From assembly GCA_000004985.1 (NCBI GenBank), contig GG738895.1: a stretch of 64,000 bases of DNA; one strand, written 5' to 3'. A model generated the notes under the pieces. The model was not told where the DNA came from. It saw nothing but the letters and a program-made list of their open reading frames with translations, and made no database searches. Position numbers and translations under genes: made by a program. This DNA comes from Naegleria gruberi (Eukaryota). Below, one piece after another: positions 1 to 61,418 of this stretch; position 1 is the first letter of the stretch; each line of letters starts with the position of its first letter.

Positions 1-150
1 TTGATGATAGGAATGAAAAGCAACTATTGGCTCAATCTTCCAGTGCATAAATTATGAATACAGTAGATAAAGTAGCACTGTTAGGTAATTAAATCCAACG
101 ATATTGAATCAAATTCTATAAGACGATAATTATGAAAATTGCAAAATTCT

Positions 151-1704
151 TTAATTTTGTAATAATCCTTCCAAAATGGCAATGTAATGAACAATAGAAT
201 CCAAATACACATTTTCATCCAAATATTCGTTGTGGTCATGAAGCAAAACCTTGGTATTTGGCATGTAACTGTATCCGATCATGTTGACACCGGCAGCTCT
301 TGGGAACTAATAAAGAATTAATAAATATAATGCAAAATAACTTACTCTGGCATCAGTGGCAGCTGGGAAAATTCTCAATTCTGTCTTCATTCTTGAAGAG
401 ACAATATCTAAGAATTTCTTAACAGTTTCATCATTAAGATCAGCAACTGGATTGATCTTTGGTTGTTCAATAAACTTGATGGTACCATTAACAAAATCAG
501 CCCATGAACGAAGCATAATTTCAATTTCCTTCAAGTCAATATGTGGTGGAATTCTCATATCAAACAAGGCAGTAGCTGTTCTTGGAATAACATTAGGACT
601 AGAGAATTCTCCAGTTTCCTTGTTGGTATGTCCTGCTCTGAGACCTGTCAAATTGATAGTAATAACAGTACTACATTGTGTCTTTTCTCTTGGATTGTTG
701 GTTTGCAATCTCATTTGAACTTGTTGTTGTTCTCTGAATGGGAAAACCTTTTCATTGAGCAATTTGTAAATCTTTTCAGTGGCTGTTTGAGGAATGAATT
801 GAGAGCCGTGTCCAACATTACCTGTGGCAGTAATTTCAAACCAGTGAGCAACATTTTCACCATAATAAATTGGGATTATATCTTCATCCAATCCACTTGC
901 CAAACCTTCATCAATACCAAAACTAACATTCAATTCCTTCCACAATTCGTTTTGAATCAAACATTCCCATCCATCATCACCTCCAATTTCTTCATCAGCA
1001 ATAAAAACAACTTGAAGATTTCTCTCTGGTTTGAATCCAGATTCCACAAGAGCAACAAGAGCTTCCATGTAACCAGTTCCGATATTCTTCATATCTTGAG
1101 ATCCTCTCGAGTAAACTCTTCTGCCCTTTCCTGTATTTTCATCAACCATTGTTGCATCAAATGGTGGATACTTCCATTGATCCTTATCAACAGGAACTAC
1201 ATCAGTATGACTATTAATCATGATACTTCCCTTCGAAGCATCTCTTCCTTTCCATGTAAATATAAAACTTGGTTTAGCAGGATTGCAATGGAAAATATAA
1301 TACTTGAGAATGGAATTTTCTCCAGTCTTTAAATTAGCATTCACTTGCACTTCCTTGATCGGATCAGTACTATCATCAATATGGAAAACACTTCTTGTCC
1401 ATTTCAACAGAAAATCAATAGCAGTGGCATAATCAGGCTTTGGATGTTGAGTAGGTAATCTCAAATAGTCTTGGAATCGTTTCATGATATCATCACGAAG
1501 GCTTTGATCCGAGTAGATTTTACTCTTGTATTGATCGGCTAAAGTTGTTGTTGTTGTTGTTGGAATGTGGATATCTACAATGGGATCTGCATTAATTTGT
1601 TGTTGTTGTTGATCCGATCCAAATACAACATTGATGAACAATACACAACACAATACAATTATTAAAATTGATGGTGATGAATTGTAAAAATTAAATCTTT
1701 TCAT
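151..1704 (-). CDS. Aminoacylase-1-like metallopeptidase (peptidase M20 family), probably secreted; 2 exons (346..1704, 151..306)
   Basis: ORF 307..1704 (-) carries M20 motifs (SHTDVVPV, GSQDMKN, IADEEIGG) and a hydrophobic N-terminus. The frame is left at a GTAAGT donor (340..345). After a 39-nt intron (307..345, ending TTAG), exon 2 reads FPRAAGVNMIGYSYMPNTKVLLHDHNEYLDE...LLQN*, which matches the conserved ACY1 C-terminus. Confidence 0.85.
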
Positions 1705-33611: not shown

Positions 33612-34388
33612 ATGCAACAAGATCAAGAAGATGCCACAATAGTTTTCCTGCATGATTTCGCTTTCTATAACCAAAATTCTTCCTCGGAATACTTGGTCAA
33701 TCTCTTGAAGAAAAACCTGTCAAGGCCAAGGACAAGATTTAACATGAAAAAAGTTGACAGTTTCCAAGATTTGGAATTGAGAGAAGATTTACTACGAGGA
33801 GTGTATGGATATGGATTAAAACAATTATCAGAAATTCAAACTAAATGTATCATGCCAATAATATCATCCGAACCACCACTAGATGTTGTTTGCATTTCAA
33901 GCTCGGGGACTGGAAAGAAAACTGCATTCTCAATTGCTCTTCTCCAAAGAATAGACTTGGATCATCAAGCGTACTCTAAAGGAGCACCTCAAGCTCTAGT
34001 TATTACACCTACGAGAGAAATGAGTCAAGTCATTTCTAATCACATCAAGAAATTGGCTCATTATTTGGATGTCAAAGTATTACCTTTCCATGGAGGAGTT
34101 TCAACCAAAGAAACAATCCAAGCTCTAAATGAAATTCAACATGTAGTTGTTGGAACAAACAAATTGATGGACTTAATCAGGTTTAAAGTTTTGAATTTGA
34201 AATATTTGAAACTGATAATAATTGACAGAACAGGTTGTGATTGGCTCGACATGTATGATCAACAGATTTTGAGAATTATCAATGCATCAAACAAATTCAA
34301 CCTTCAAATATGTGTCTTTGGCGATTCGAGAAATATAGGATCGATTGAACAATATCTGAAAGATCCAATTTATTGTGAACTGGAGTAG
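33612..34388 (+). CDS. eIF4A-like DEAD-box helicase domain 1 only, with degenerate catalytic motifs (pseudo-helicase, copy 1)
   Basis: The protein is collinear with eIF4A RecA domain 1. The Q-motif region is FQDLELREDLLRGVYGYGL..LSEIQ. Walker A is SSSGTGKKT, and PTREMS replaces PTRELA. VVGT is present. DEAD is replaced by IIDR and SAT by VFG. It ends at the DPI...E domain boundary. Only ~295 nt remain before the next gene, so no domain 2 can be encoded. Confidence 0.7.
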   Translation: MQQDQEDATIVFLHDFAFYNQNSSSEYLVNLLKKNLSRPRTRFNMKKVDSFQDLELREDLLRGVYGYGLKQLSEIQTKCIMPIISSEPPLDVVCISSSGTGKKTAFSIALLQRIDLDHQAYSKGAPQALVITPTREMSQVISNHIKKLAHYLDVKVLPFHGGVSTKETIQALNEIQHVVVGTNKLMDLIRFKVLNLKYLKLIIIDRTGCDWLDMYDQQILRIINASNKFNLQICVFGDSRNIGSIEQYLKDPIYCELE

Positions 34389-34683: not shown

Positions 34684-35775
34684 ATGGGAAACAATCAACA
34701 ACCCACATCCCAACCACCAGTTTTAAAAGATGGCGCTCTTCCGAGTGTTAGTACTCCATCATCAGCATGTTATGAACGCACATTAATGCAAGAATATTTT
34801 CCTAATAATTGTAAATTAATTCGAGTTTGTGATCATGATGAAGAAAATCGAAGGAAACAAGAGGAGAATTTGAAGAATTATCGGGAGAAATACTTGTCTC
34901 GATGTAATGGAATATTGGAGAAGATGTTACCTGAGGAAATTATTGTTGAAATTTTGTATTACTTGCCAATGAAGAGTTTGATCAAATTACAAATGGTTTC
35001 AAAGAATTTTCGCTTGTATTGGACTGAACTTCCTGGATTGTGGGATAAATTTTCAGATTATCCCAAAATGATGTATATTCCAATGGTATACGAAAGTATG
35101 AGAAGTAATTTTGGATATTATAATGAATTTAGACAAAAATTAATTAATTTACATGAAAAGCCAACACGAAATTTTGATTTTACTGGATATCAATACAAAG
35201 CCATCGTTTTGGGAGATAAAAAGTGTGGGAAAACCATTTTGCATAACAGAGTCTTCAAAGGCGAACCATTTTCTCAAGAATATGTCTATACGATCGGAGT
35301 AGATTTTTCTACCACAATTTCCAAACAAAACATATACATTCAATCTTGGGATACAGGTGGAGATGAAAGATTTAGAACAATTAATATCAATTTCTTTAGG
35401 GGTATGAAAGGCCACTTTTACTGCTTTGATTTGAATAATCACGAGTCATTTGAAGTAATGAAGGACATTTTTCAAGATTGGAAGAATGTATATCTCAAAG
35501 GTGAAGACCTTAGTTCATATTTTACTAAGATTTCATTCGCATTGGTGGGATTGAAATCAGATTTGGAACGCAAAGTATCAAGAGATGAAATTCATGAATT
35601 CTTGGAAAATATTGAACCACTGAAGGATAAGACTTTGCACACCAGTAGAGTCCAATACTTTGAGTTGAGTTCTAAAGAAGATTCAATTTCAGATTTACTT
35701 TTTCCATTTGTCTATAGTTATCATAATGTAATGGAAATACCAAGGCAATATTCAACAAGTATAAGTGAAATGTAA
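34684..35775 (+). CDS. MG-start + F-box + Rab-like small GTPase fusion protein (copy 1)
   Basis: The N-terminus is MGNNQQ. The F-box reads LPEEIIVEILYYLPMKSLIKLQMVSKNFRLYW. The GTPase motifs are G1 GDKKCGKT, G2 YTIGVDF, G3 WDTGGDERF, G4 GLKSDL and G5 ELSSKE. There is no C-terminal Cys. Confidence 0.75.
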   Translation: MGNNQQPTSQPPVLKDGALPSVSTPSSACYERTLMQEYFPNNCKLIRVCDHDEENRRKQEENLKNYREKYLSRCNGILEKMLPEEIIVEILYYLPMKSLIKLQMVSKNFRLYWTELPGLWDKFSDYPKMMYIPMVYESMRSNFGYYNEFRQKLINLHEKPTRNFDFTGYQYKAIVLGDKKCGKTILHNRVFKGEPFSQEYVYTIGVDFSTTISKQNIYIQSWDTGGDERFRTININFFRGMKGHFYCFDLNNHESFEVMKDIFQDWKNVYLKGEDLSSYFTKISFALVGLKSDLERKVSRDEIHEFLENIEPLKDKTLHTSRVQYFELSSKEDSISDLLFPFVYSYHNVMEIPRQYSTSISEM

Positions 35776-35924: not shown

Positions 35925-38900
35925 TTAAATCATTAAGAACTGAACAAAGACCACTAAGCACAATACTTCAGTAACAAAATAGCTAGCATTAGCAACAGAA
36001 ACTCTATCCGATTTTCCAGGTGAACCCCTTCTTGATGGTTCTGGAATTGGTTGGGAAGTACTACTTTTTGGTTGTGGAATAGATGGTTGTGGATTAACAG
36101 GACTCTCTCCATTACAATTCATCTCATAAGCTCCAATATCTGGTGCCTTTCCATAATAAGGCATTCCAACATTAGTTCCCTTATCAATCAATGTAATGTT
36201 GCTGTCACATCTCAATCTAAAATCATTAGCCAAATAATCTTTGAAATAATTGGTGGCATTATTGTAATTATTTTCAAAAATGGTGTTTGGTCCAATAACT
36301 GGTTTCCAAATACCTTGGAAATAGCTCCCAACAATTGCAATATAATTGTAATCAGTTTCCCAATATGGAAGAAGATCAAACTTTGCACTAGAAGTTCCAA
36401 TATTCAAGTCAACCAACTGAATAGTATTGTCCAAGAAGGCATTATTCTTCATGGAAACACTTCTTGGATAGTAACTAATCATTGCCGAATCAAAAATTGC
36501 TTGGAATACCAATTCATCAAGAATGGATCTTGTCAACCCTCTTACTTCCTCAATAATTGAAAGACCAGCATTTGAATACGAGAAAGCACCTGTACTGGAG
36601 CTTAATAACCCTCTTTTTGTAACAGCAGTCCAATATGGATAAGCAAGACCATCTTGATCCAATTGAGGAAGAACATAATCTTTGTGAACTGACATGAAAT
36701 TAGTGTCATTAATCACATTGTTAATGAAATTGATAATTTCAGCCTTATCACCACTTGTTAAATCTGAAGCTGTAGAATAAGATCTAATTCTTGATACAAG
36801 AGTTTCATTTTTGGACCAAACTAATTTGTTTCCATTTTCGGTTGGGTTTACAATACTGTTAAAAAGAGTATTCCAATTTGAAGTGGTAGTACTATCTATC
36901 AAAGCACATCTGCTATTATCTGTCTTGACAGCAAATCTCAAAAATGATTGATAGAATTGATTATTATGCAGCACAACTCTAGCAGCATGATTGACACCAA
37001 CTGGACCTCCAATAAAGACATTTCGTCTGAAGATAACTAAACCATTTTGTTCCATCCACATGTTCTGATTACCAAGTTTGTTAATCAATACGTTATCTTC
37101 GAGAACAATGTTATTGATATTGGTAAATTGAATATTATCTGGATGTTGACGATATGAAGTTTGATGCTCAACTCGATTGTTTTTGATTAGAATATTCCAA
37201 TTACTATATGCCAATTGAGTTCCAGAACCAACCCAAATACCATTATTATAATTCTTGTAAATGTACATGTTCTTAATTTGTGAATCGTTCACCATACTTG
37301 CAAAGTTTACACCATTGTTGTGATTATAACTAATCTTGCCGCCATCAACATTAATATTAGTTGCATCTCTGAAACTAAATCCATTTTCACCATTTCCATA
37401 TGAAGAGCAGTTCAATAATTGAACACTATCAGTGAATTGACCAAAAAATCCCATTGAAGCATACTTTCTAAACATCATATCTTGAACAATTAAACCATCC
37501 CCGTAAACTATTGAAATGCCATTGGTCAAGGCAGATGCTTCAAGCATGACACCACTCACCTTAGGATCCTTATCAAGTGAAACTTGAATGATATTTCCTT
37601 CTGCGGTATATTGATTAGCACGAGAGAATGATCCAATATGATTGGCAATAGCATACGAATCTTTCAAGACTATTCCCATTGGAGTAGTAAGTCCTGGCGG
37701 AATGGCATTAATTCCAATAGTATTGGTAGTGGCATTGTAATAGATAATTGTTCGAGGTTGAATGGCATTTCCAAATTGATTGTAATGGTAGAAATCAGCA
37801 CCAACCCAGAAATTATCTGAAACAGGATTTCCTGCAGCATCATATTTGAACATGTCATCAACTTCCAAATAGACTATTCCATTTAAAGTGTATGAAACAT
37901 TCTTTGGAGTGAGATAATTAGTATGATCATATTCATCATCCAAATCATATGGAAGAGGTTTCATTGCCAAACTCAATTTCTCGCCATCTGCATAAATATA
38001 CGAAGTTGAAACTTGAAGTTGACCCTTATAGATGGAAATTGGTGTGGACATGACCTTTTCCAAATTTTTAGGATCAATAATTAATGAACCATCCAAAACT
38101 GCTGAATAAGTTTTGGAATTTCCAGAGGAAGGAGTTGGTGGATTCAAAGGTTTGATAGTAATTGGATGTTTGGAATGGGTTGGGCGATCAAAATAGATTG
38201 ATTCTCTATAGATACCATTTCCAACAATTAAGGTGTCATCTGGAAGTAACATGTATTGAGCTGCATTCAAAGTTGACCAAGCAGAAGATAGACCAAGACC
38301 ATCATTAGAATCGGATCCACTCAATTGATTAACATAGTAGGTCAATCCATTTCTGTTGTGCATTTGTTTACCTTGATAAACAGTAACAGATTGAGATCTC
38401 AAAGTTGCTCCTTTGGAATTTCCTGGATTTCTGTCATAAAAACCAAATTTCAAGATTTTAAACTTTTGAATAGCACTAGAATCGGTATCTGTTACAATGA
38501 CTTGATAATCATTAGCACTGGAACCCAATTTAGCCAACTGAATTGAAATTCCATTTGAAGACCATTCAGCATAAAGTTTGTAAGTGGAATAAAGCAATGG
38601 GACATGAATTAATGCTAATTTGGAGCTAGAATATAAGCGAACAGATTGACCATTCATAATTCTGGTAATGGACATGGTTGGATACAAACTAATCTTGTAA
38701 TAATTGTTTTGGTCAACCAGGAGAACAAAACCAAGATCATAGCTGGTAGATAGAAAACCAGTTTGCAAATTGCTTGAAAATGTAACACCATCAGTAGTGT
38801 CATACGGAGTGTCATAGGTGACAATCGAATCATTTTGATAAATTTGCAACAATTGACTAGCAATACCAACATTTCCTTTTTGGGTATTCCAACCAGCCAT

Positions 38901-39326
38901 GCCATTGCTAAAATTACTCTGCATCAACACCTTCAAACTATTTGGAGTAGGCAATGCAATAGATTGAATAGTAATCATGTGAGTAATGGTTATCTTTTTC
39001 CCATTCACATCATTATACGAAACGTTTCTCATCACCACAGTTTCGCCAATCGATTGTGTACTATAAACCAGAGCTGAATTATAATTATATAAACCAGTTT
39101 TCAATGGAGAACCATCTGCCATTGAATAAGCGATCTGAACTGAAGTTGAAGAATAGGAATCATTGAAATAGGTAATTCTTGGATTTAAAATTACTGAACC
39201 GAATTGATGCATGATAACTTTCTGGATGGGAGTAACGTAGAGTACATCCTGAACAGTTTGTGCATGTGTAACGGTATGAAAAACTGTCAGGAGGAGCAAA
39301 ATGACAAGTGGCAGTTTTGCTTTCAT
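35925..39326 (-). CDS. Large secreted right-handed beta-helix (pectin-lyase-fold, PbH1 repeat) protein with C-terminal Pro/Ser stalk and hydrophobic tail
   Basis: 1133-aa intronless ORF with signal-like MKAKLPLVILLLLTVFHTVTHA. It has a run of PbH1-like turns (NGISIVYGDG.., NGENGFSFRDATNINV, NHNNGVNFAS, NYNNGIWVGS, NIQFTNINNIVLEDN). The C-terminus reads PQPSIPQPKSSTSQPIPEP...LCLVVFVQFLMI. Confidence 0.7.
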   Translation of the reverse strand: MKAKLPLVILLLLTVFHTVTHAQTVQDVLYVTPIQKVIMHQFGSVILNPRITYFNDSYSSTSVQIAYSMADGSPLKTGLYNYNSALVYSTQSIGETVVMRNVSYNDVNGKKITITHMITIQSIALPTPNSLKVLMQSNFSNGMAGWNTQKGNVGIASQLLQIYQNDSIVTYDTPYDTTDGVTFSSNLQTGFLSTSYDLGFVLLVDQNNYYKISLYPTMSITRIMNGQSVRLYSSSKLALIHVPLLYSTYKLYAEWSSNGISIQLAKLGSSANDYQVIVTDTDSSAIQKFKILKFGFYDRNPGNSKGATLRSQSVTVYQGKQMHNRNGLTYYVNQLSGSDSNDGLGLSSAWSTLNAAQYMLLPDDTLIVGNGIYRESIYFDRPTHSKHPITIKPLNPPTPSSGNSKTYSAVLDGSLIIDPKNLEKVMSTPISIYKGQLQVSTSYIYADGEKLSLAMKPLPYDLDDEYDHTNYLTPKNVSYTLNGIVYLEVDDMFKYDAAGNPVSDNFWVGADFYHYNQFGNAIQPRTIIYYNATTNTIGINAIPPGLTTPMGIVLKDSYAIANHIGSFSRANQYTAEGNIIQVSLDKDPKVSGVMLEASALTNGISIVYGDGLIVQDMMFRKYASMGFFGQFTDSVQLLNCSSYGNGENGFSFRDATNINVDGGKISYNHNNGVNFASMVNDSQIKNMYIYKNYNNGIWVGSGTQLAYSNWNILIKNNRVEHQTSYRQHPDNIQFTNINNIVLEDNVLINKLGNQNMWMEQNGLVIFRRNVFIGGPVGVNHAARVVLHNNQFYQSFLRFAVKTDNSRCALIDSTTTSNWNTLFNSIVNPTENGNKLVWSKNETLVSRIRSYSTASDLTSGDKAEIINFINNVINDTNFMSVHKDYVLPQLDQDGLAYPYWTAVTKRGLLSSSTGAFSYSNAGLSIIEEVRGLTRSILDELVFQAIFDSAMISYYPRSVSMKNNAFLDNTIQLVDLNIGTSSAKFDLLPYWETDYNYIAIVGSYFQGIWKPVIGPNTIFENNYNNATNYFKDYLANDFRLRCDSNITLIDKGTNVGMPYYGKAPDIGAYEMNCNGESPVNPQPSIPQPKSSTSQPIPEPSRRGSPGKSDRVSVANASYFVTEVLCLVVFVQFLMI

Positions 39327-39818: not shown

Positions 39819-39898
39819 GCAGGGGTTCCCGAGTGGTCAAAGGGGTAGACTCAAGTTCTACTGCGCAAGCTTCGTGGGTTCAAATCCCACCTTCTGCA
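39819..39898 (+). tRNA. tRNA-Leu (anticodon CAA), long variable arm
   Basis: GCAGGGGTTCCCGAGTGGTCAAAGGGGTAGACTCAAGTTCTACTGCGCAAGCTTCGTGGGTTCAAATCCCACCTTCTGCA. All stems pair, the anticodon loop is CUCAAGU, and a T-rich tract lies downstream. Confidence 0.9.
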
Positions 39899-60320: not shown

Positions 60321-61418
60321 TTATAGCATGGTTTTTAGAGTGGCAACAGCATAGAGGAATGGAAAGAGAAGGTCATCATCAGAGCACTCTTCTTTGGAGC
60401 TTAATTCAAAATATTGAACTTTGGTTGTGTGAATTGTTTTTTGTTGAGGCTCTGGCTCGACCATTTTTAGAAAATTGTAAATTTCAAGTCTTGTTACTTG
60501 ATGATCGAGATCTGATTTCAATCCGAGTAAGAGGAAACATCTATCATTGATATTGTAATCTGAAATATCTTTGACTGTCATTTCGTGATAAATTTCAATC
60601 ATTTCCTCAAATGATTTATGACTATTCAAATCAAAACAATACACAAAAACATTAGCTCTCGAATAAACAGATTTGAATAGCGATAGATATGTTTGATTTC
60701 CACATGTATCCCAAATCTTGAATGCAAATTCCGTCCCACTTCCATAAAGGTAATGCTTGTCAATTACTGGGAAAGTTATTGAGGGTGTATAATTTTCCGA
60801 AAATGGTAATTGATTAAAAGCTCTATCAATCAAAGTGGATTTACCACACCCTGATGACCCAACAAATATGTATTGGGCACATTGAGGCAATTCAACATCC
60901 TCATCTATTACAAATCTCTTCAGCAAGACATTTTTAACATTTTCATAACTTTCCATATCAGAAAACATGTACAACATTGGACTTTTTCTCCTCAAATCCT
61001 TCCACAGAACTTCAAATCTGGTCCAATACATTAAAAATCTCTTTGAAACTCGTTGCATTCTCCCTATACTTTCCATATCCAAAAATTGTAAAATGTGTAA
61101 AATTATTTCATGAGGAAAATTCGTCAACCAACCATCCTTCTCCTCACCCTGATTGAAATACTCATCATTGCCTCCATATCCTCTCCTAATTCCATTAAAA
61201 ATTCCTATCGGAAGCAATTCTACATCCGAAACAATAGTAGAAAGAATAGATTTCCTCTTGAATCCTCTTGGTAATTCCAACACGGGAAAATGTAGGGATT
61301 TTCCTGTAGAATAAAGTAAATTTTCAGATTGTTCACGGGAGGGGATTTTATTTTCATCTCTTGCTTGGTGATTCAGAGATGATGATGAGGGCGTCTCTGT
61401 TGATGTTTGTTGTCCCAT
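60321..61418 (-). CDS. MG-start + F-box + Rab-like small GTPase fusion protein (copy 2)
   Basis: MGQQTS fits the myristoylation consensus. The F-box reads FPHEIILHILQFLDMESIGRMQRVSKRFLMYW. The GTPase motifs are G1 GSSGCGKS, G3 WDTCGNQTY, G4 GLKSDL and G5 ELSSKE. There is no C-terminal Cys. Confidence 0.75.
   Translation of the reverse strand: MGQQTSTETPSSSSLNHQARDENKIPSREQSENLLYSTGKSLHFPVLELPRGFKRKSILSTIVSDVELLPIGIFNGIRRGYGGNDEYFNQGEEKDGWLTNFPHEIILHILQFLDMESIGRMQRVSKRFLMYWTRFEVLWKDLRRKSPMLYMFSDMESYENVKNVLLKRFVIDEDVELPQCAQYIFVGSSGCGKSTLIDRAFNQLPFSENYTPSITFPVIDKHYLYGSGTEFAFKIWDTCGNQTYLSLFKSVYSRANVFVYCFDLNSHKSFEEMIEIYHEMTVKDISDYNINDRCFLLLGLKSDLDHQVTRLEIYNFLKMVEPEPQQKTIHTTKVQYFELSSKEECSDDDLLFPFLYAVATLKTML

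Follow-up and report, generated by a model that had tools for sequence, protein, structure and literature searches.

An apparently unannotated, intronless parallel β-helix protein of Naegleria gruberi with prokaryotic relatives and predicted secretion and anchor signals

Phagotrophic protists are well known to have acquired carbohydrate-active genes by horizontal transfer. Among the enzymes relevant to the protein described here, members of polysaccharide lyase family PL9 are distinguished by a cluster of Asp residues that binds Ca2+ together with a catalytic Lys, and the AlgE/AlgG mannuronan C5-epimerases by a catalytic YG(F/I)DPH(D/E) or DPHD motif located at a conserved coil. For the GH141 enzyme BT_1002, the catalytic Asp pair D523/D564 was reported to be essential for activity (PMC12786026). 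An 1133-aa protein encoded within a 64 000-nucleotide stretch of the N. gruberi genome (contig GG738895.1; referred to here as the window) was compared with these systems. In its AlphaFold2 (AF2) model (pLDDT 86), the protein is similar to Pel9A, AlgE4, RbmB, GH141 and GH120, a set comprising polysaccharide lyases, epimerases and hydrolases, and its top structural neighbours include phage capsule depolymerases. A sequence search of the PDB with this protein returned no match, and membership of a characterised CAZy PL, GH or CE family could not be shown. An earlier note on this DNA had proposed a carbohydrate-active enzyme, a proposal which fold and gene context favour and to which a demonstrated PL or GH family membership could not be added.

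Individual comparisons with these enzymes revealed likeness predominantly at the level of the fold. The target has no sequence-level match to the PL9 pectate lyase Pel9A (PDB 1ru4), is about three times larger and carries extra domains, while the family alignment, judged from sequence columns only, contains neither a conserved Lys nor a conserved Asp cluster corresponding to the PL9 base and Ca2+ site. The family profile matched a PL9 rhamnogalacturonan lyase over the N-cap only. RbmB, the Vibrio cholerae VPS biofilm-matrix lyase (PDB 9ozd), is a single-domain protein without the family motif, and its 14% identity to the target reflects likeness at fold level only. Similarly, profile likeness to GH141 (the α-L-fucosidase BT_1002; PDB 5mqp) and GH120 (XylC; PDB 3vst) covered only the N-cap and generic coils; the GH141 match (E 1.5e-5) contained no individually significant stretch and lay outside the catalytic region, and the published GH141*6 signatures HQxWxxxD and RxD were not recognised in the family motif on inspection by eye. 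In an HMM alignment, the AlgE4 sequence YGFDPHE paired with a non-conserved family consensus (nGislqk; MGFFGQF in the window protein), and the family HPDN sequence, at profile positions ~640–650, lies ~110 positions (roughly four to five coils) past the AlgE4-aligned stretch and has a different order. Membership of the AlgE-type epimerases (AlgE4, AlgE6 and AlgG) was rejected, as D-P-H is lacking at the catalytic position.

In the ORF listing, the gene surpasses all other frames of the window in length, followed by ORFs of 982 and 820 aa; as had been noted earlier, it consists of exactly one uninterrupted reading frame (Table 1). This frame is collinear with N. gruberi paralogue P0001 across 97% of its length and with a Phycisphaerae homologue across residues 5–1069. 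The absence of introns, previously put forward as a sign of transfer, carries little weight, as many genes in the window are single ORFs. No protein identical or near-identical to the target was found in the databases searched. A neighbouring M20 peptidase ORF displayed 100% identity over 453 aa to an annotated N. gruberi protein. The target appears to be an unannotated fifth N. gruberi paralogue without a counterpart in the public proteome.

Table 1. Coordinates of the gene and of the observed or predicted features of its product within the window.
Feature	Position	Strand	Basis
Complete intronless CDS, 1133 aa plus stop	35925..39326	(-)	ORF listing, ATG start
Stop codon of the 1133-aa CDS	35925-35927	(-)	
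Predicted signal peptide, aa 1-22, MKAKLPLVILLLLTVFHTVTHA, predicted cleavage between Ala22 and Gln23	39261..39326	(-)	hydropathy, inspection
N-terminal Ig-like β-sandwich, aa 29-123	38958..39242	(-)	AF2 β-strands, pLDDT ~90
ConA/LamG-like jelly-roll, putative carbohydrate-binding module, aa 132-318	38373..38933	(-)	AF2 model
Right-handed parallel β-helix, aa 329-800	36927..38342	(-)	
Family polar motif, candidate active or binding site	37056..37151	(-)	alignment conservation
α-Helical sub-domain after the β-helix, aa 818-952	36471..36875	(-)	AF2 helices
Last β-coils and C-terminal cap, aa 956-1070	36117..36461	(-)	
Disordered Pro/Ser/Thr-rich stalk, aa 1075-1112	35991..36104	(-)	pLDDT 25-45, sequence read directly
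Putative C-terminal anchor signal, aa 1113-1133	35928..35990	(-)	hydropathy 1.8-2.1, AF2 helix 1118-1132

The gene is physically integrated in the host chromosome, as is evident from the eukaryotic genes adjoining it on both sides (encoding a kinase, EPL1, an SNF transporter, F-box/Ras and LRR proteins), the six tRNA genes in the window, and its host-like composition and codon usage. Its GC3 is 0.27 and its RSCU correlation with neighbouring genes is 0.93, as high as for any gene in the window, so that the comparison of codon usage and GC3 suggested earlier places the target within host usage. Bacterial contamination of the assembly, or a very recent insertion, would be compatible with a bacterial-like, intronless protein that is missing from the annotated proteome. 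Both were rejected on composition and genomic context, and this explanation is considered extremely improbable: the flanking eukaryotic genes and tRNAs lie on one contiguous sequence with the target, its GC content and codon usage do not differ from those of its neighbours, identity to any bacterial relative is 27–33% compared with 46–47% to the N. gruberi paralogues NAEGRDRAFT_74717 and NAEGRDRAFT_64181 (both on other scaffolds), and the protein bears a stalk and tail of eukaryotic type.

The central part of the protein was shown to be composed of stacked right-handed coils, as found in parallel β-helix or pectin-lyase folds, in agreement with what had been read from the letters alone. The helix opens with an N-cap motif (TYYV-x3-G-x-D-x-N-x-G...DDT-x-I...G-x-YRE). 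Pfam Beta_helix (PF13229) scored 21.1 bits against a gathering cutoff of 25.9 bits on the target alone (E 2.6e-4) and was matched by 25 of 30 aligned family members (best E 2e-30). In Foldseek, the preceding jelly-roll aligned with legume lectins and a phage CBM (TM 0.45–0.59 on the target), and from about aa 140 onwards it has a homologous counterpart in bacterial relatives of tier 1 as well as tier 2. The helical sub-domain, with invariant residues W818, R933 and E938, occurs in the amoeba paralogues and, among bacterial relatives, only in those of tier 1. The C-terminal cap is characterised by the motif DF-x-L...LIDKGTNVG-x-PY-x-G-x-APDIGAYE and a match to the NCBIfam PelN C-terminus at aa 1038–1069; of the 80 prokaryotic loci kept, 79 contained the short cap motif, as did nine viral loci. 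The Ig-like domain was detected by phmmer only in Naegleria and Willaertia paralogues, and by hhalign it was linked to the N-terminus of the bacterial protein P0012 (probability 90.7%, E 1.2e-6). With tblastn matches to bacterial loci reaching aa 5 and aa 77 of the target, this domain is probably also of bacterial origin. The view of a bacterial-type helix is thus upheld and at the same time too narrow, since the jelly-roll and the C-terminal extension are bacterial as well.

The ectodomain is flanked by features indicative of secretion and anchoring, as proposed in the earlier note for all three elements. The N-terminus reads MKAK-LPLVILLLLTVF-HTVTHA/QT (the slash marking the predicted cleavage), with visible n-, h- and c-regions, Kyte-Doolittle 19-mer means above 1.6 for residues 1–25, a helix at residues 5–17 predicted by AF2 with low pLDDT, and T-H-A at positions -3 to -1, an A-x-A-like site as judged by eye. 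An equivalent signal segment occurs in a paralogue, in which the mature N-terminus QT[VI]QD is also conserved. Towards the C-terminus, the stalk sequence NPQPSIPQPKSSTSQPIPEPS was read at about aa 1078–1098, and in the AF2 model residues 1075–1133 display pLDDT values below 50, except for a predicted terminal helix. A comparable stalk is carried by paralogue P0001. Residues 1109–1133 constitute the only stretch besides the N-terminus with hydropathy above 1.6; here, N1113-A-S (candidate omega site) is followed by the spacer YFVTE and the 13-aa hydrophobic tail VLCLVVFVQFLMI, which reaches the last residue and leaves no cytoplasmic tail. Comparable hydrophobic tails close the paralogues examined that have an informative C-terminus, among them P0001, P0002 and P0028 of N. 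gruberi. Judged from this layout, a putative GPI anchor and a tail-less transmembrane anchor are equally possible.

At least five paralogues, including the target, are present in N. gruberi. NAEGRDRAFT_74717, _64181, _69936/_69935 and _75844 belong to the same family and share its domain order, with _75844 lacking the coils corresponding to aa 615–823; 74717, 64181 and 69935 also share the signal peptide and/or the terminal hydrophobic tail. The same family and domain order were observed for Willaertia magna ABK040_011139, _013011, _008776, _015116 and _008771. Some Willaertia copies differ in reaching 2.85 kaa, with added EGF repeats and loss of the HPDN/QNMW motif, and the W. magna P0003 model ends without a hydrophobic tail. 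Literature searches with the NAEGRDRAFT and ABK040 locus tags, PDB 9RX2, and Naegleria combined with beta-helix or pectate lyase retrieved nothing specific, and the Naegleria and Willaertia members are functionally uncharacterised. Bacterial relatives, likewise uncharacterised, include the Phycisphaerae MAG protein MBE0535468.1, labelled 'right-handed parallel beta-helix repeat-containing protein'. Together with metagenomic relatives, it is homologous to the target over aa 5/146–1071, with 27–32% identity, and has in common with it the jelly-roll, the helix with its helical insert, the cap and the polar motif. Conversely, the bacterial relatives possess a bacterial signal peptide and extra C-terminal LamG, Ig or other domains, and lack the Pro/Ser stalk and terminal hydrophobic tail.

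Among 1.84 billion proteins, 28 family representatives were obtained with E <1e-30; these represent 50%-identity clusters, within which other Naegleria species may sit. The named strong relatives derive from N. gruberi, W. magna and one Phycisphaerae MAG. Naegleria and Willaertia are the only eukaryotes named, the remainder being bacterial or archaeal or located on bacterial contigs, and the taxonomic check advocated earlier found every relative examined outside these two genera to be prokaryotic. In two neighbour-joining analyses (446 and 591 columns; this being the only tree method applied), the heterolobosean copies formed one clade with 100% bootstrap support, which joins tier-1 bacteria at 99–100% within a wider tier-2 prokaryotic radiation. 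The restricted eukaryotic range and this nesting support a gene of bacterial ancestry that was acquired horizontally. Codon usage like that of neighbouring genes, together with a single amoeba clade nested among prokaryotes, suggests an old transfer followed by duplication; the transfer probably preceded the Naegleria/Willaertia split, and duplication was shown to have proceeded independently in both genera thereafter. The claim of horizontal acquisition is retained as to bacterial origin and amended as to number and age: the target does not stand alone and belongs, with the other N. gruberi copies, to an old, fully ameliorated heterolobosean multigene family.

That age, with the family common to Naegleria and Willaertia and its composition free of any foreign trace, would also suit an ancient eukaryotic gene inherited vertically with near-universal loss, or a transfer from amoeba to bacteria. 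Such scenarios are very improbable, as no other eukaryote occurs among the named or context-checked relatives, and the amoeba clade is enclosed by prokaryotic relatives of much greater diversity. Furthermore, proteins of Acrasis kona and N. lovaniensis were in one of the collections searched, yet neither species was among the named family members.

Within the helix, a conserved polar motif was identified, consisting of R726-x-H728-P-D730-N731-x-Q733 and Q754-N755-M-W757, with N789 and R797 just downstream. Across the family, H728, D730, N731, Q754 and W757 are each conserved in 24 of 27 sequences and Q733 in 25, while N755, N789 and R797 occur in all 27; in the tier-1 alignment A3 (n=9 sequences), all of these residues are invariant. 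With His, Arg, Asn, Gln and Trp among its conserved residues, and neither a conserved pair of carboxylates nor a cluster of Asp, the family slightly favours metal-independent action on acidic sugars, as in a lyase or an epimerase, over that of a classical two-carboxylate hydrolase. The motif is retained in the window protein and has disappeared from Willaertia paralogues P0004, P0007 and P0008, a distribution expected if it is functional. The same losses, accompanied by the gain of EGF repeats, imply that the scaffold persists without the motif, which would suit a non-catalytic surface adhesin or lectin that binds glycans for capture, adhesion or recognition without cleaving them. The stalk and anchor layout is typical of adhesins, and no catalytic family assignment was possible. 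Such a role is possible, albeit not favoured: the target retains every conserved polar residue shared with its bacterial homologues despite more than 70% sequence divergence, the highest structural scores were all to enzymes, and the bacterial homologues are located in polysaccharide synthesis or degradation loci. Genes in these loci include those encoding Wzx, glycosyltransferase, DegT, FdtA, EpsI, Poly_export and MBOAT, and a bacterial homologue was also found to adjoin a GH78 rhamnosidase gene.

Taken together, the target is, with reasonable though far from complete confidence, a secreted, cell-surface-tethered, glycan-recognising β-helix protein of bacterial ancestry, and we infer an enzymatic function on polysaccharide. 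The data indicate that the gene for the complete secreted ectodomain (Ig-like domain, ConA-like jelly-roll, parallel β-helix, helical sub-domain and C-terminal cap) passed from a bacterium to an ancestor of Naegleria and Willaertia. In the Naegleria copies, this ectodomain lies between a predicted signal peptide of eukaryotic type on one side and a disordered Pro/Ser stalk with a closing hydrophobic segment on the other. According to the proposed mechanism, the signal peptide would direct the protein into the ER, and the C-terminal segment would be replaced by a GPI anchor at a candidate omega site around N1113–S1115 or serve as a tail-less membrane anchor, with the stalk keeping the ectodomain off the plasma or phagosomal membrane. 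The jelly-roll may then bind polysaccharide, and a groove on the helix, putatively lined by H728, D730, N731, Q733, Q754, N755, W757, N789 and R797, may cut or modify bacterial extracellular polysaccharide such as capsule or biofilm matrix, allowing the bacterivorous amoeba to reach and digest its prey.

In three bacterial loci, the homologue resides inside the producer's own EPS-biosynthesis cluster, suggesting the processing of a self-polymer, as for RbmB. By extension, the amoeba protein could act on the amoeba's own glycans, for example by reshaping the cyst wall or glycocalyx as the cell encysts, excysts or turns from amoeba to flagellate, and multiple paralogues could suit different life stages. 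This alternative is rather unlikely, and no matching endogenous polysaccharide pathway was evident within the window. More speculatively, within the preferred reading of a surface protein directed at bacterial polysaccharide, the homologues may constitute an unclassified family of β-helix depolymerases (R-x-H-P-D-N-x-Q, Q-N-M-W and an invariant Arg, without carboxylate pair or Ca2+ site), with which bacteria would trim their own EPS and which amoebae would have re-tooled with stalk and GPI anchor as a surface 'biofilm-matrix cutter' for grazing, some paralogues having become pure adhesins.

If the proposed function holds, a bacterivorous amoeba has turned a bacterial matrix-processing enzyme on its prey by means of eukaryotic secretion and anchoring signals, and five paralogues in a culturable model amoeba would provide a tractable entry to the breaching of capsules and biofilms by protists. 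As transfers of this kind into phagotrophic protists are well known, the result refines rather than overturns the existing picture, representing an uncharacterised yet unsurprising gene transfer into a bacteria-eating amoeba. More immediately, the analysis draws attention to a gene of 1133 codons that seems to have escaped annotation in the N. gruberi reference genome. It also delimits a small, heterolobosean-specific family of bacterial descent, recorded to date from Naegleria and Willaertia alone, and brings out a conserved motif in bacterial proteins that are associated with EPS loci and are themselves uncharacterised.

Additional scans, keyed mostly on the ubiquitous cap motif when performed with A3, retrieved no full-length relative from viral contigs, and from metagenomes the known P0010 contig and one tier-2 relative. 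These results lend no support to a viral vector and reveal no closer donor. A scan of GTDB genomes (185 579 species), which relied on a single C-terminal peptide pattern, yielded one full-length relative. Finally, a word-indexed homology search with the single protein gave one match among the matches listed, and the same search with a 30-sequence profile retrieved, among the matches listed, remote bacterial β-helix proteins.

The ORF listing confirmed one ORF that starts with ATG and spans 1133 codons; it is the longest of the window, the runners-up encoding 982 and 820 aa. The absence of an intron, which the earlier note had taken to fit horizontal acquisition, is real, but carries no information on origin, since most long genes of the window are likewise single ORFs. 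The deduced protein commences with MKAK, LPLVILLLLTVF and HTVTHA/QT, and this segment, previously described as signal-like, is one of just two stretches of the protein with a 19-residue hydropathy above 1.6. The anticipated Pro/Ser-rich tract (NPQPSIPQPKSSTSQPIPEPS) was read from the sequence, and hydropathy analysis placed a hydrophobic segment (...NASYFVTEVLCLVVFVQFLMI) at the very end of the protein; such tails also terminate the N. gruberi copies 74717, 64181 and 69935.

The central beta-helix is weak from sequence alone, with Pfam Beta_helix scoring 21.1 bits against a cutoff of 25.9 bits (aa 602-720), and a PDB sequence search with the target returned zero matches. It is clear, however, in a confident AlphaFold2 model (mean pLDDT 85.8, pTM 0.84) computed from a 30-sequence family alignment, in which the Pro/Ser tract is disordered.

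Features of the beta-helix protein (target) and of the surrounding window
Feature	Target residues	Window position (strand)	Basis
Target ORF		35925-39326 (-)	ORF listing
Signal helix	5-17		AlphaFold2 model
N-terminal Ig-like beta-sandwich	29-123		AlphaFold2 model
Jelly-roll	132-318		AlphaFold2 model
Long beta-helix	329-800		AlphaFold2 model
Alpha-helical sub-domain	818-952		AlphaFold2 model
Additional coils and cap	956-1038		AlphaFold2 model
Cap motif DF-x-L-x3-S-x-LIDxGxxVG...PDIGAYE	1038-1069	about 36120-36215	
Disordered stalk	1075-1117		AlphaFold2 model
Terminal helix	1118-1132		AlphaFold2 model
M20 peptidase ORF		307-1704 (-)	
DEAD-box ORFs		33612-34388 (+); 45766-46560 (-)	
F-box and Ras/Rab-like GTPase genes		34684-35775 (+); 60321-61418 (-)	
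tRNA-Leu(CAA)		39819-39898 (+)	
Other tRNA genes		11303; 31801; 45360; 52314; 57323	
Heparinase II/III-like ORF (weak similarity)		47461-49644 (+)	Pfam, PDB

An exhaustive phmmer search of the target against 1.84 billion cluster representatives yielded 261 matches, 28 of them with E < 1e-30. The top matches, all of them predicted proteins of N. gruberi, were NAEGRDRAFT_64181 and _74717, which share 46-47% identity with the target, together with _75844 and the neighbouring pair of models _69936/_69935. They are paralogues of the target since the window itself is from N. gruberi; five hypothetical proteins of Willaertia magna followed. No representative at least 50% identical to the target was present among the 1.84 billion, and an identical or near-identical protein was absent from a 5.8-billion-cluster database, so that the target appears to be an unannotated fifth N. 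gruberi paralogue, apparently not sharing a scaffold with any of the other four. NAEGRDRAFT_69936 and _69935 (equivalent to aa 293-801 and 879-1106, respectively) look like one gene divided by annotation, and _75844 (P0006) lacks the coils equivalent to aa 615-823, which reflects a wrongly modelled intron or else a genuine deletion. Among the Willaertia copies, P0004 and P0008 are giant paralogues of 2864 and 2851 aa; matches to Teneurin-type EGF repeats came from two family members, probably these two. P0007 and P0030 are encoded almost in tandem on a single contig (locus tags 008776 and 008771).

The nearer prokaryotic relatives (tier 1), i.e. a protein from a metagenome-assembled genome (MAG) of Phycisphaerae (Planctomycetota) and a number of metagenomic proteins, cover aa 138-1071 of the target at 27-32% identity, and the tier-1 contigs examined are bacterial. 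For the remoter, likewise prokaryotic relatives (tier 2), the common region is limited to aa 140-805. Across the GTDB species genomes (185,579 species), a scan seeded with a single C-terminal peptide pattern, which relatives without that motif would escape, recovered one full-length relative, the Phycisphaerae MAG. Pattern-seeded scans of JGI metagenomes returned the contig of metagenomic P0010 again together with one tier-2 relative, and those of viral contigs returned no full-length relative. Unlike full-length relatives, the 30-residue C-terminal cap motif is ubiquitous, and it is the only part of the target matching NCBIfam PelN. As the terminus of bacterial beta-helix proteins, this motif has a very wide distribution (among others in Actinomycetota, Bacteroidota and Myxococcota; loci L007-L094); it is also found on viral contigs, and occurs independently of the remaining target-family sequence.

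In two neighbour-joining analyses (446 and 591 columns, with 100 and 200 bootstraps, respectively), all Naegleria and Willaertia copies formed one clade with 100% bootstrap support, which joined the tier-1 bacterial sequences at 99-100% within the wider prokaryotic set. Inside this clade, the target is sister to 64181 and 74717 (97%), and the Willaertia copies cluster together (77-100%). The simplest history suggested by these trees would be one transfer from a bacterium to a heterolobosean that predates the divergence of Naegleria and Willaertia, with later duplications within each genus. The eukaryotes found to carry homologues are Naegleria and Willaertia, not a broad range of lineages, and their clade is nested among prokaryotes, in keeping with the bacterial origin proposed earlier; vertical eukaryotic ancestry is very improbable.

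Collinearity with the tier-1 bacteria extends over the jelly-roll, the helix, the helical insert and the cap. Detection of the N-terminal Ig-like domain by phmmer was restricted to amoebae, but HMM comparison matched this domain to the N-terminus of bacterial P0012 (probability 90.7%, E 1.2e-6), and tblastn alignments with bacterial loci extend back to target residue 5 or 77. Because of this collinearity, HMM match and tblastn reach, the transferred unit is, as judged from the alignments, the entire ectodomain. Three parts of the target are eukaryote-specific: its signal peptide, its Pro/Ser stalk and the hydrophobic tail at its end. At the C-terminus of P0012, a Gly-rich stretch is followed by a hydrophobic helix and then by an Arg cluster (...GGGGCALAPFG...LGLAFILAVTYRRDRRRPVS), an arrangement that resembles a sortase-like C-terminal sorting signal, and may by analogy be the bacterial counterpart of the amoebal anchor signal. 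Exosortase-associated EpsI genes lie beside two bacterial homologues (loci L001 and L003).

Integration of the gene into the host genome is evident from its surroundings. GC content is flat along the window (0.30-0.38), and the comparison with neighbouring genes proposed in the earlier note revealed a similar GC3 (0.27 for the target) and a synonymous-codon usage whose correlation with that of the remaining window (r = 0.93) is as high as for any gene there. The neighbours are eukaryotic (a protein kinase, EPL1, an SNF transporter, two F-box and Ras GTPases, an LRR protein, DEAD-box fragments and an S49 peptidase), with six tRNA genes interspersed, all of which argues against contamination or a recent insertion, the probability of which is negligible.

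Phagotrophic protists are well known to have acquired carbohydrate-active genes by horizontal transfer, and the beta-helix fold is common. Structural neighbours of the target model (scores in brackets) included Pel9A pectate lyase (32.0), AlgE4 epimerase (31.4), an alginate epimerase/lyase (29.8), the V. cholerae biofilm-matrix lyase RbmB (29.7), a PL31 alginate lyase (29.0), GH141 BT_1002 (29.0, 447 residues aligned) and GH120 XylC (28.6). The target-family profile matched the XylC N-cap, AlgE coils, the GH136 and PL9 N-caps and an uncharacterised 'parallel beta-helix repeat protein' (9rx2), none of these matches establishing family membership. Membership of AlgE was rejected, as the catalytic YGFDPHE of AlgE4 aligns with a non-conserved stretch of the target family.

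The family displays a polar signature of its own (R726-x-H728-P-D730-N731-x-Q733, Q754-N755-M-W757, N789 and R797), each residue being conserved in 24-27 of 27 members and invariant in all nine sequences of the tier-1 alignment. It is retained in the target, three further N. gruberi copies and one Willaertia copy, whereas the HPDN/QNMW motif is lost in Willaertia P0004, P0007 and P0008, and the signature is deleted in NAEGRDRAFT_75844. Such a pattern would be expected for a functional site given up by some duplicates, and suggests neofunctionalisation of the three Willaertia proteins into non-catalytic surface proteins. That the target itself is a non-catalytic adhesin is unlikely. No conserved carboxylate pair, Asp cluster or conserved Lys was found in the target family, which weakly favours a putative lyase or epimerase-type chemistry on acidic polysaccharides over classical hydrolysis.

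We consider it fairly probable that the target is a bacterial-derived ectodomain, secreted, tethered to the surface or phagosome, and directed at the extracellular polysaccharide of bacteria. Its lectin-like module and its beta-helix module, the latter resembling a glycanase, would be held at the amoeba surface or phagosome membrane by the stalk and a GPI or tail-less anchor. The analysis shows the origin, the architecture and the host-genome integration of the gene, and from these the type of anchor, catalysis, the substrate and the physiological role are inferred. Among the bacterial homologues, P0010 and P0005 are located inside clusters with Wzx flippases, GT2, DegT, FdtA, hexapeptide acetyltransferases, MBOAT, EpsI and Poly_export; P0013 is surrounded by DegT, GFO_IDH, GT4 and CE2 genes, P0023 adjoins a ribosomal-protein operon and a LacI regulator, and the Phycisphaerae gene directly adjoins a GH78 alpha-L-rhamnosidase. 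An alternative that echoes the self-EPS context of bacterial homologues would be an enzyme that reshapes the cyst wall or coat of the amoeba itself, a role that we regard as distinctly improbable compared with action on bacterial polysaccharide. The bacterial and amoebal branches are both uncharacterised, the literature searched containing no mention of target-family loci; that they constitute a new depolymerase family, re-tooled by amoebae as a surface biofilm or capsule cutter, is a doubtful, speculative proposition.

Several neighbouring loci were also inspected. The tRNA-Leu(CAA) gene is located ~490 bp upstream of the target start codon, within the 3.9-kb stretch separating the target from the S49 peptidase ORF. 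Over 453 residues, the M20 peptidase ORF matches an annotated N. gruberi protein with 100% identity, departing from it solely where the gene model splices, which identifies the window as the N. gruberi reference genome; this neighbour is thus in the public proteome, from which the target appears to be missing. In two genes similar to each other, an F-box is joined to a Ras/Rab-like GTPase domain, an unusual architecture, and one of these genes lies directly downstream of the target in convergent orientation. Two further ORFs each encode just an N-terminal DEAD-box helicase domain; they probably represent the first exons of helicase genes that contain introns and lie on either side of the target region. 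Finally, a 727-aa ORF ~8 kb from the target is weakly similar to heparinase II/III (Pfam Hepar_II_III_C, E 7.7e-4; PDB heparinase II, E 3e-5 over aa 378-460), and may represent a second bacterial-type polysaccharide lyase-like gene near the target.
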